From an uncultured Planctomycetota bacterium (lineage in GTDB: Bacteria > Planctomycetota > J058), in NCBI GenBank assembly GCA_964569055.1, contig CAZMSZ010000001.1, positions 1 to 59,460 on the forward strand: a DNA stretch of 59,460 nucleotides. Direction: 5' to 3'. Positions 34,027 to 34,752 of this stretch are shown here, piece after piece. How positions within the stretch are numbered: the first letter of the stretch is position 1; each line of letters starts with the position of its first letter. A program made the position numbers and the translations under genes. Below the pieces are notes generated by a model that was not told the origin of the DNA, did no database searches, and saw nothing but the letters and a program-made list of their open reading frames with translations.

Positions 34027-34752
34027 ATGGCGAGCAAGCGCGAGACGAGCCCCACGCGATCCCCTTCGCACGAGGAGACGAAGCACGGCGCCAGCTCCAG
34101 CAGCGCGAGCGCCACGGTGGCGCCGCCACAGGATCACAGCCACAGCTTCGCGCAGGTGCAGGTGCAGGCGCCGGTGCCGAGGTCGGGCAGTCGGGTGCGC
34201 GTGGACCCAACTGCGCTGTTCCAGCAGTTCTGGACCGGGCTGGGCACCACCAGCCGCGACCTCCAGCCACTTACCGAGACGCCCCACTATGACTTTGCGC
34301 GAGCGTACCTCGAGTACGGCGATACCGACGAGAAGAAGGCGGCCTGGGCGACGGCCTGGCGGGACTACGACGAGTACACACAGTGGGAGGGCTACGGCTG
34401 GCAGGGCACTACGCACAACGGAGCGCACAACCCCGTCGTGTATGCGCAGAACATCGCGCAATTCGAGCGAGGGCTAGACCTCAAGAGCCAGCAGATCCGA
34501 GCCAGGCCGGTCAACGTCAACGGGCAGATCGCCTACATGGTGACGGACGGAATGCACCGCGCCAGCTACGCCGCCGCCCGCCGCATGAGCTCGATCCCGA
34601 TCACGGTGGACGGCGACTACGACCCGCGCCTGCGCCAGGCGGTTCGCCTCGATCGCGCGTGGGTCCGCGCCACGGTCCGACAGATTCGGGCCGCAGAGGC
34701 CGCGGCCGCTCGGAACCAGAGCGCTCCCTCATCGAGCAGCTCGGGCAAGTAG
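34027..34752 (+). CDS. Candidate CIS cargo: ParB/sulfiredoxin-fold-like protein with disordered N-terminal leader
   Basis: ATG lies 3 nt after the ATPase stop, behind GAGGGGGAG. The first ~60 aa are Ser/Thr/Pro/His-rich. IAYMVTDGMHRASYAAARRMSSIPITV resembles the ParB-like nuclease core (DGxHR...IPV). Codon usage is less GC3-biased than in the upstream genes. Confidence 0.55.
   Translation: MASKRETSPTRSPSHEETKHGASSSSASATVAPPQDHSHSFAQVQVQAPVPRSGSRVRVDPTALFQQFWTGLGTTSRDLQPLTETPHYDFARAYLEYGDTDEKKAAWATAWRDYDEYTQWEGYGWQGTTHNGAHNPVVYAQNIAQFERGLDLKSQQIRARPVNVNGQIAYMVTDGMHRASYAAARRMSSIPITVDGDYDPRLRQAVRLDRAWVRATVRQIRAAEAAAARNQSAPSSSSSGK

Follow-up and report, generated by a model that had tools for sequence, protein, structure and literature searches.

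The locus considered here raises a simple question: what is the purpose of the 241 amino acid protein encoded immediately behind the AAA+ ATPase gene of an extracellular contractile injection system (eCIS)? The open reading frame (ORF) in question, at 34027-34752, lies in a 59,460 nucleotide stretch of DNA from an uncultured Planctomycetota bacterium (contig CAZMSZ010000001.1 of assembly GCA_964569055.1), the whole of which is referred to below as the window. An earlier sequence-only reading had proposed the protein as candidate cargo of the injection system, with a disordered N-terminal leader and a C-terminal half resembling the ParB/sulfiredoxin (Srx) fold. Our analysis supports this as a hypothesis, to which we give a probability of roughly 0.55: the protein would be a leader-loaded eCIS effector carrying a ParB/Srx-type enzyme domain that uses nucleoside triphosphates (NTPs).

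The eCIS cluster spans ~6.8-36.3 kb of the window on the forward strand and its core genes were verified by Pfam (Table 1). The window is ~74% GC, and true reading frames were therefore picked by GC content at each codon position before Pfam scanning. The last core gene encodes a Pvc15/Afp15-like ATPase, the presumed cargo loader, with an AAA domain (PF00004, E=2e-22) and a winged-helix domain (PF22977, E=2e-13). It has 5770 homologues at E<=1e-30, the best of them (~51% identity) in Archangium, Vitiosangium and Hyalangium. Its TAA stop codon at 34021-34023 is followed by CCG and then, in the same frame, by the ATG of the target ORF at 34027, a gap of 3 nt. Nine nucleotides before this ATG, and still within the 3′ end of the ATPase gene, lies a Shine-Dalgarno-like GGGGGAG, a placement that points to translational coupling of the target to the ATPase. 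No promoter-like or terminator-like site was found between the ATPase gene and the last two genes of the operon, namely the target ORF and a second ORF at 34815-36278. An ATPase-target fusion or read-through product is not indicated, because every contig assembled independently carries the stop codon. The identical target protein was found on 11 short contigs with the same neighbours and, among the nine of these that were listed, all came from runs SRR118438xx. The sequence-only reading was exact as to the 3 nt gap and the two peptides that it quoted, and its recognition of the eCIS ATPase and its context was correct.

The target ORF has coding-like GC by codon position throughout. Its first 56 residues form the leader, which had been described from the sequence as Ser/Thr/Pro/His-rich and disordered, a description that holds. 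Over the first 63 residues Ser, Thr and Pro make up 40%, hydrophobic residues 13% and the net charge is +2; residues 1-50 have a mean Kyte-Doolittle hydropathy of -0.87 and an S+T+P fraction of 0.40. AlphaFold predicts no secondary structure over residues 1-45, with a predicted local distance difference test (pLDDT) score of 49-54 over residues 1-40. The leader is very probably translated, because its GC content at third codon positions (GC3), 0.91, is coding-like and the Shine-Dalgarno-like sequence stands 9 nt before its ATG; GC3 is 0.88 in the core of the protein and 0.95 in the ATPase gene, and in the non-coding spacer at 36279-36570 it is no higher than 0.72 in any phase.

In Photorhabdus virulence cassettes (PVCs), the Pvc15-dependent loading of payloads both requires a disordered N-terminal packaging domain and can be conferred by one (PMC10097599; PMC9054023), in agreement with the statement in the sequence-only reading that leaders of ~50 residues are the PVC loading signal. 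A hydrophilic disordered N-terminus and proximity to the last core gene are also the top predictors of eCIS toxins (PMC11297309). The target ORF lies near the last core gene and its N-terminal ~50 residues are hydrophilic and disordered, both being features by which eCIS effectors are recognised (Jiang 2022; Kreitz 2023; Danov 2024). Over residues 6-21 its net charge is -1, whereas described packaging signals are slightly positive there (PMC11297309). Comparison of N-terminal composition with that of other ORFs in the window is unreliable, as starts taken from the longest ORF over-extend in a GC-rich genome. One suggestion made earlier about the leader fails: its HSFAQVQVQ segment does not echo the DFSxVRVH box of DUF4157-type toxins, there being no PF13699 match at E<=10, and for the three boxes compared 216, 885 and 994 of 1000 shuffled sequences reached the score of the leader.

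The gene occupies a slot that is used for toxins in related loci. We surveyed this slot in 30 IMG/VR loci with related ATPases. A Pvc16-like gene, read from its IRFDLPE motif, follows the ATPase gene in many of them, and in three the ORF beginning 1-6 nt past the ATPase stop codon encodes a toxin or an eCIS-marker protein: an eCIS_core (DUF4157) protein in L026, which like the window has a fibre-like gene upstream of the ATPase gene; an eCIS_core protein with an Ntox15 domain in L050; and in L042 a protein with a Ser/Thr/Pro-rich leader and an Ntox47 domain but no DUF4157. In L042 the ORF (6886-10173) begins 6 nt after the ATPase gene and encodes an N-terminus with an S/T/P fraction of 0.44 and a C-terminal Ntox47 domain; here a leader-only toxin occurs naturally in the position behind an ATPase gene. 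The closest ATPase homologues, those of Archangium, Vitiosangium and Hyalangium, also lie in eCIS loci, but these have a different gene order, with the ATPase gene in mid-operon and several eCIS_core (DUF4157) proteins.

What, then, would the leader deliver? AlphaFold, run with an alignment of the 12 known family sequences, gave a best mean pLDDT of 78.6, with five models in agreement (77.2-78.6) and values of ~90 over residues 50-200. In these models the N-terminal part of the structured core (residues 57-133) comprises family-specific beta-hairpins and helices, and includes a T-P-H-Y motif at 85-88 and Y117. The ParB/Srx core itself corresponds to approximately residues 134-197 and is built from a helix (136-148), two strands (157-164 and 167-174), a second helix (176-184) and a further strand (190-194), matching the expected order of elements. 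The sequence of residues 134-194, H-N-P-(helix)-...-P-V-...-Y-x-V-T-D-G-M-H-R-A-...-I-P-I-T-V, has the layout of a ParB N-domain. C-terminal to this the model has one helix, with no helix-turn-helix (HTH) or other DNA-binding domain.

The structure search that the sequence-only reading had called for bears out its view of the C-terminal half. In a Foldseek search of the PDB the best 37 matches were all of ParB/Srx type, including KorB, sulfiredoxin, Osa, Noc, PadC, SbnI, SerK, ParB and two structural-genomics proteins, 2hwj and 1vk1, which we take to be members of the same superfamily. These matches extend over 57-78 aligned columns with a root-mean-square deviation (rmsd) of ~3 A and probabilities of up to 0.96; the first unrelated match has a probability of 0.04. 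Among viral structures (BFVD) the majority of the named matches were likewise ParB/Sulfiredoxin proteins, with probabilities across the two databases reaching 0.96-0.99. The D-G-M-H-R sequence at residues 174-178 spans the end of strand 167-174 and the start of helix 176-184, and corresponds in the models to GxxR, the P-motif with which ParB/Srx proteins bind phosphate. This motif takes the form GERR in ParB, GCHR in Srx and GNHR in the toxin ToxB (bioRxiv 10.64898/2026.05.05.722872). Across the 12-sequence alignment, in which the shared core is ~160 amino acids and the motif consensus is DGAHR, residues P86, H87, Y88, Y117, H134, D174, G175 and R178 are invariant and H177 nearly so. We regard the fold assignment as solid, because independent searches converge on one superfamily and the P-motif is invariant, and a ParB/Srx fold for the core is very likely on the predicted models.

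On the preferred hypothesis, the target gene would be co-transcribed and translationally coupled with that of the AAA+ ATPase. The ~55-residue disordered hydrophilic leader would be recognised by the ATPase, as are the leaders of the PVC payloads Pdp1 and Pnf by Pvc15, and would thread the protein into the lumen of the tube. After injection, the ~145-residue core would act as an NTP-dependent ParB/sulfiredoxin-fold enzyme whose D-G-x-H-R P-motif binds nucleotide phosphates and Mg2+. The activity would most likely be ATP hydrolysis or phosphotransfer (a ToxB-like ATPase, or an SbnI/SerK/Srx-like kinase), with an Osa-like nuclease activity as the alternative. The loading, injection and toxicity of the effector, as well as its nucleotide and its target, are what we infer at this stage.

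A number of observations weigh against this hypothesis, and the first group concerns the fold. Single Foldseek E-values are 0.04-1. A profile of the family picked out SbnI alone from the PDB, at E=0.012-0.026 over ~40 residues in a strand-strand-DGxHR-helix register, with the motif of the family aligned to DGvHR of SbnI, which is below significance. At permissive settings the hints from Pfam were PF22162 PFIN, with E=0.018 and a score of 15.9 bits where the cut-off is 27, and PF24392 ParB-CE, with E=0.26; no Pfam family matched the target at its gathering threshold, and PF02195 ParBc was absent even at E<=10. None of the other 11 family members matches a ParB family at E<=1, no match to the target was found in NCBIfam or PHROGs, and a single-sequence phmmer search of the PDB found nothing. 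Alignment of the family profile with human sulfiredoxin by hhalign, using a single Srx sequence, gave the expected register without significance. Could the likeness to ParB/Srx proteins be a modelling artefact, or a convergent beta-beta-alpha motif within an unrelated fold of unrelated function? An alignment of only 12 sequences, the lack of a Pfam match at curated cut-offs, Foldseek E-values of 0.04 or more over short alignments and the non-significant hhalign result would all be compatible with this. We nevertheless consider it improbable: the five models agree and have a core at ~90, the top 37 PDB matches and most named BFVD matches belong to one superfamily, the best weak matches of three independent sequence searches (PFIN, ParB-CE and SbnI) are to ParB/Srx proteins only, and the aligned motif is the functional P-motif, invariant in the family.

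The second group of objections concerns the leader. Residues 57 and 59, the region in which the homologues start, are encoded by in-frame GTG codons, possible alternative starts that would yield a leaderless protein; seven of the 11 relatives have fewer than 20 residues ahead of the first conserved motif, another (P0009) has ~26, and only three (P0003, P0007 and P0011) have long N-terminal extensions. The leaders of the target and of the downstream ORF are alike in composition only, and no motif common to these two leaders and the extensions of P0011 and P0017 rose above shuffled sequences. The gene might accordingly be read as a passenger at the end of the operon, for example a horizontally acquired conflict or metabolic gene, whose leader is either untranslated or without function. 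In favour of this, the GTGs coincide with the starts of the relatives, members of the family are scattered and have unrelated neighbourhoods, a genome of 74% GC often shows long open frames ahead of true starts, and the GC content of the gene (0.685) is below that of the ATPase (0.749) and tail fibre (0.746) genes. Set against this, the leader has the GC3 of coding sequence and the spacer does not; the ATG has a good Shine-Dalgarno sequence and lies 3 nt past the upstream stop codon; the gene shares the strand of the ATPase gene and has no promoter-like site before it; an enzyme-like part behind a leader recurs in the next gene; and toxins occupy the same slot in related loci. The drop in GC is at codon positions 1 and 2 rather than at position 3, and is therefore an effect of amino acid composition and not of foreign origin. 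A passenger gene is on this evidence quite unlikely. Horizontal transfer of the last two genes of the operon, for which their lower GC was considered as a sign, was rejected on the same grounds, GC3 being 0.88-0.91.

The third group of objections comes from the rarity of the family and the company that its members keep. An exhaustive HMMER search of 1.84 billion representative proteins found 11 relatives (E=2e-7 to 3e-4, 29-36% identity), all sporadic, and no housekeeping orthologue outside contractile injection loci, which the sequence-only reading had named as the finding that would argue against a cargo role. A word-indexed search of 5.8 billion clusters returned the protein itself only or, with the family alignment, two further relatives that were already known; no members were found, within the limits of the scans, in GTDB representative genomes (searched with two alignment orders), in IMG/VR or by tblastn of plasmids and phages, and a metagenome scan gave one locus. 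A hidden Markov model (HMM) of the family detected neither a member in any of 34 other ATPase-related loci nor a second copy in the window, so that the link to eCIS is that of a single locus. One relative (P0003/P0014) lies inside a Wza-Wzc-Wzx-Wzy-glycosyltransferase polysaccharide cluster, and another (P0005) lies among small ORFs beside genes for a thiol-activated cytolysin and a TCAD9/nSTAND NTPase. The contexts of P0006, P0009, P0011 and P0017 were uninformative, owing to short contigs or unannotated neighbours, and none of the relatives whose context could be read is part of an eCIS. The family is therefore a sporadic and accessory one, being neither a housekeeping orthologue nor an eCIS-specific component, and the eCIS copy is set apart by its long disordered Ser/Thr/Pro-rich leader.

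Two of these contexts deserve a brief description. The member from the polysaccharide cluster (L016 9784-10545, also L010/L017), from a low-GC organism, has a 95-amino acid N-terminal extension that does not look disordered. Its location hints that the ancestral function of the family may have been as a small-molecule or glycan phosphotransferase. In metagenome Ga0075030 (L011), a leaderless P0005 (676-1158) lies upstream of the cytolysin, an 836-amino acid protein of no known type and the TCAD9/nSTAND NTPase, a neighbourhood with the appearance of a toxin or conflict island that has nothing to do with eCIS.

Finally among the objections, DUF4157/eCIS_core (PF13699), the strongest eCIS-toxin marker, is absent from all scanned ORFs of the cluster, an absence that is uninformative according to the authors of the marker analysis (PMC11297309). 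Around eCIS loci, genes for classical ParBc proteins are rare and show no enrichment (2 genes, ratio 0.166; Geller 2021, supplementary file 13). Nor is there an immunity-like small coding ORF between or after the last two genes, although many PVC toxins also lack an adjacent immunity gene (PMC3482391). Might the protein instead work inside the cell that makes it, as an accessory enzyme or regulator: an NTP switch, or a kinase that modifies the particle, a Ser-rich neighbour or an envelope polymer for release? Tight coupling to the ATPase gene would suit such a role, as would the missing immunity gene and the fact that many ParB-fold proteins are regulators (PMC12704722). The relative in the polysaccharide cluster, together with SbnI serine kinases as the closest solved proteins by profile, points to a metabolic phosphotransferase and, more speculatively, the Ser-Asp and Ser-Glu tracts encoded downstream could be kinase substrates. 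A regulator would sit less well with a model that has the core and one C-terminal helix only and no HTH or DNA-binding domain. The target is moreover absent from the 34 ATPase-related loci and from Archangium-type loci, and is hence no conserved component, and a disordered leader of ~55 residues, which most relatives lack, has no obvious use in a cytoplasmic enzyme. We therefore consider a role in the producer cell unlikely.

How new would an injected ParB/Srx-fold effector be? The statement in the sequence-only reading that no ParB-fold enzyme had been characterised as cargo of a contractile injection system stands as far as experiment is concerned, for the searchable literature holds no experimentally characterised eCIS payload of this fold, and no paper connecting ParB with eCIS cargo emerged from a full-text search. 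As a claim of novelty it was overstated, since the concept is not new: Tox-ParB, with PVC export, was described in 2012 and ToxB, in contact-dependent inhibition (CDI), in a 2026 preprint. Tox-ParB, with the motif DGHHR, was listed with PVC export and PVC-metallopeptidase (Zhang et al. 2012, Biol Direct 7:18, PMC3482391, Table 2). Like the predicted core of our protein it has a ParB fold; it is a toxin domain associated with PVC (eCIS) export, and its conserved D-G-H-H-R-type motif agrees in part with that of the target. It is, however, a C-terminal domain found behind RHS or filamentous-haemagglutinin repeats or the PVC-metallopeptidase (DUF4157), whereas the target is a stand-alone protein of 241 amino acids with a leader only. 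The target motif DGMHR and family consensus DGAHR keep the D, G, second H and R of DGHHR and not the first H. The target also differs in having no Pfam ParBc match and ~80 family-specific residues (T-P-H-Y, Y117 and H134) before the core, and in its neighbourhood: Tox-ParB is accompanied by immunity genes (Imm20, Imm27 or Imm-SuFu), the target by the gene for a 487-amino acid leader-bearing protein with no Pfam match.

ToxB is a ParB-fold ATPase toxin from the C-terminus of a CdiA protein (CdiA-CT), has the P-motif GNHR and is active in bacteria and plant cells (Kaljevic et al., bioRxiv 10.64898/2026.05.05.722872). Like the target it has a divergent ParB fold without DNA binding and a G-x-H-R P-motif (GNHR in ToxB, GMHR in the target), and it provides a precedent both for ATP binding and hydrolysis as a toxic activity and for toxicity across kingdoms. 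ToxB is delivered by CDI (type V), lies behind a VENN motif, has a cognate immunity protein (iToxB) and can be found by PF02195 searches; the target belongs to an eCIS, has no such partner and is invisible to PF02195. No CdiA, CdiB or downstream small ORF is present at the target locus. The protein is thus best described as a member of a very rare new ParB/Srx family at an eCIS payload position, with a leader only, resembling Tox-ParB and ToxB in outline and differing from each in the features by which they are recognised.

Other ParB/Srx-fold proteins bear on the activity. SbnI and SerK (PDB 5ujd, 5uje, 6nr6 and 5x0b) share the strand-strand-DGxHR-helix register with the target and are also among its Foldseek matches; they are enzymes that carry out ATP/ADP phosphotransfer without DNA binding (PMC12704722). 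The likeness is marginal (~40 residues), their C-terminal domains and catalytic residues are unmatched in the target, and they belong to siderophore and cysteine biosynthesis contexts. A more specific version of the effector hypothesis would have the target represent a new branch of the ParB/Srx fold, marked by T-P-H-Y, Y117, H134 and DGxHR, that is a phosphotransferase or kinase and that, recruited through its leader and injected by the eCIS, phosphorylates a component of the target cell, be it a metabolite, a glycan or a protein; in so definite a form we think it tentative and rather unlikely. Osa (PFIN, PF22162; PDB 4ovb and 4o7k) provides the best Pfam hint (E=0.018-0.031 over residues 131-196, 15-16 bits against a cut-off of 27) and a poor Foldseek alignment (rmsd 13-16 A). 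It is a small stand-alone ParB/Srx-fold protein involved in conflict between genetic elements, and has been reported to be active both as an ATPase and as a DNase. Unlike an injected effector, Osa works inside its own host cell. The closest likeness in overall layout is with the PVC payloads Pdp1 and Pnf and with Afp18, whose genes lie downstream of that of the ATPase and whose enzyme domains follow a disordered hydrophilic N-terminus of ~50 residues. The target belongs to another eCIS lineage, one of high GC with its nearest named ATPase homologues in myxobacteria, and its leader has no sequence similarity to theirs.

If the preferred hypothesis is correct, the target would be the first experimentally tractable eCIS payload with a ParB/sulfiredoxin fold, an architecture previously predicted only in the 2012 table, and would extend the use of the ParB-CTPase fold as a toxin from CDI, with ToxB, to a second and unrelated delivery machine. 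It would also define a new and extremely rare protein family for which there is no Pfam model. Should the kinase version be true, it would be the first ParB/Srx-fold effector of a contractile injection system tied to a defined chemistry. The operon, with its ATPase gene and two leader-bearing enzymes from a high-GC and probably myxobacterial eCIS lineage, would provide a compact test of leader-only loading without DUF4157, and would in this respect be useful to those who engineer eCIS payloads. The present view of eCIS cargo organisation would be unchanged.

The ORF at 34815-36278 follows the target at a distance of 62 nt and probably encodes a second payload. Its product has a disordered leader of ~110 amino acids, first Ser/Pro/Arg-rich and then with acidic Ser-Asp and Ser-Glu tracts, and a second poly-Ser/acidic insert. 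Its C-terminal domain has TLNL, LQEV, GDFY and DHAPV motifs that recall the endonuclease/exonuclease/phosphatase (EEP) fold. This reading is drawn from the motifs and the EEP fold was not confirmed: there was no match in Pfam, NCBIfam, PHROG or the PDB, and a single-sequence AlphaFold model had a pLDDT of 37. Since this gene, too, is leader-bearing and has enzyme-like motifs, the last two genes of the operon together resemble a payload module.

Table 1. Positions in the window of the target ORF, its parts and the surrounding genes
Feature	Position	Strand	Pfam families and remarks
RNase III (rnc)	5944-6669		Housekeeping boundary of the cluster
Sheath	ends 9797	+	PF17482, PF04984
gp19 tube	9798-10337	+	PF06841
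T4_baseplate-like	10229-11068	+	PF12322
Pvc16_N (ORF)	13257-15053	+	PF14065
CIS_tube	15153-15983	+	PF19266
VgrG OB domain (ORF)	16662-18419	+	PF04717
Putative tail fibre	27618-31085	+	DUF6519, Laminin_G_3 (ConA-like lectin), C-terminal Kelch beta-propeller
eCIS AAA+ ATPase (Pvc15/Afp15-like)	32053-34023	+	Identified by Pfam; last core gene, presumed cargo loader
Shine-Dalgarno-like GGGGGAG	34011-34017	+	Within 3′ end of ATPase gene
Target ORF, 241 aa	34027-34752	+	Leader, ParB/Srx-like core, C-terminal helix and Ser-rich tail
Leader, residues 1-56	34027-34194	+	Ser/Thr/Pro/His-rich, predicted disordered; putative packaging signal
Structured core, residues 57-198	34195-34620	+	AlphaFold pLDDT mostly 79-97 per 10-residue block, one block 69
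D-G-M-H-R, residues 174-178	34546-34560	+	Putative P-motif
487-aa ORF	34815-36278	+	Probable second cargo
GNAT, SET and Rubisco-LSMT-substrate-binding fusion protein	36571-38700	-	Convergent to the payload genes
Mfd (mfd)	39928-43500		Housekeeping boundary beyond the GNAT-SET gene

Several other features of the cluster may be recorded. The sheath ORF (~6800-9797, +) is apparently unusually long, with a coding signal from ~6.9 kb: it would encode ~950-1000 amino acids, compared with 545-760 in related loci, and the Pfam sheath domains occupy only the last ~200 residues. This length and domain placement suggest a large inserted or N-terminal domain. Between the T4_baseplate-like and Pvc16_N genes, the stretch at 10888-13860 (+) has a GC content of 0.79, an ambiguous codon-phase signal and no Pfam match; a related locus has an unannotated gene of 1443 amino acids at the equivalent position, and the stretch may be a tape-measure analogue. 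With its DUF6519, Laminin_G_3 and Kelch domains, the putative tail fibre would have a receptor-binding module of a kind unusual in eCIS fibres. Two small ORFs between the fibre and ATPase genes, at 31125-31544 and 31638-32015 (both +), are paralogous, with 25% identity (E=1e-10) and a common 'G-x-AYFYN' start, and neither matches any family. Translation of the first probably begins at the ATG at ~31191.

Beyond the operon, a Fic/DOC-domain protein is encoded at 44388-45002 (-), ~8 kb downstream of the cluster. Upstream of the cluster, the gene at 1212-2834 (+) encodes an FGE-sulfatase domain joined to a Ser/Thr kinase, a type of fusion that is common in myxobacteria. Taken with the best named ATPase homologues, these neighbours would fit a Myxococcota-like origin. 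The SET domain encoded by the convergent gene has a parallel in metagenome locus L052, where a SET-domain gene (658-1125) also adjoins a related eCIS; SET-domain proteins may be recurrent neighbours, and possibly effectors, of this eCIS lineage.

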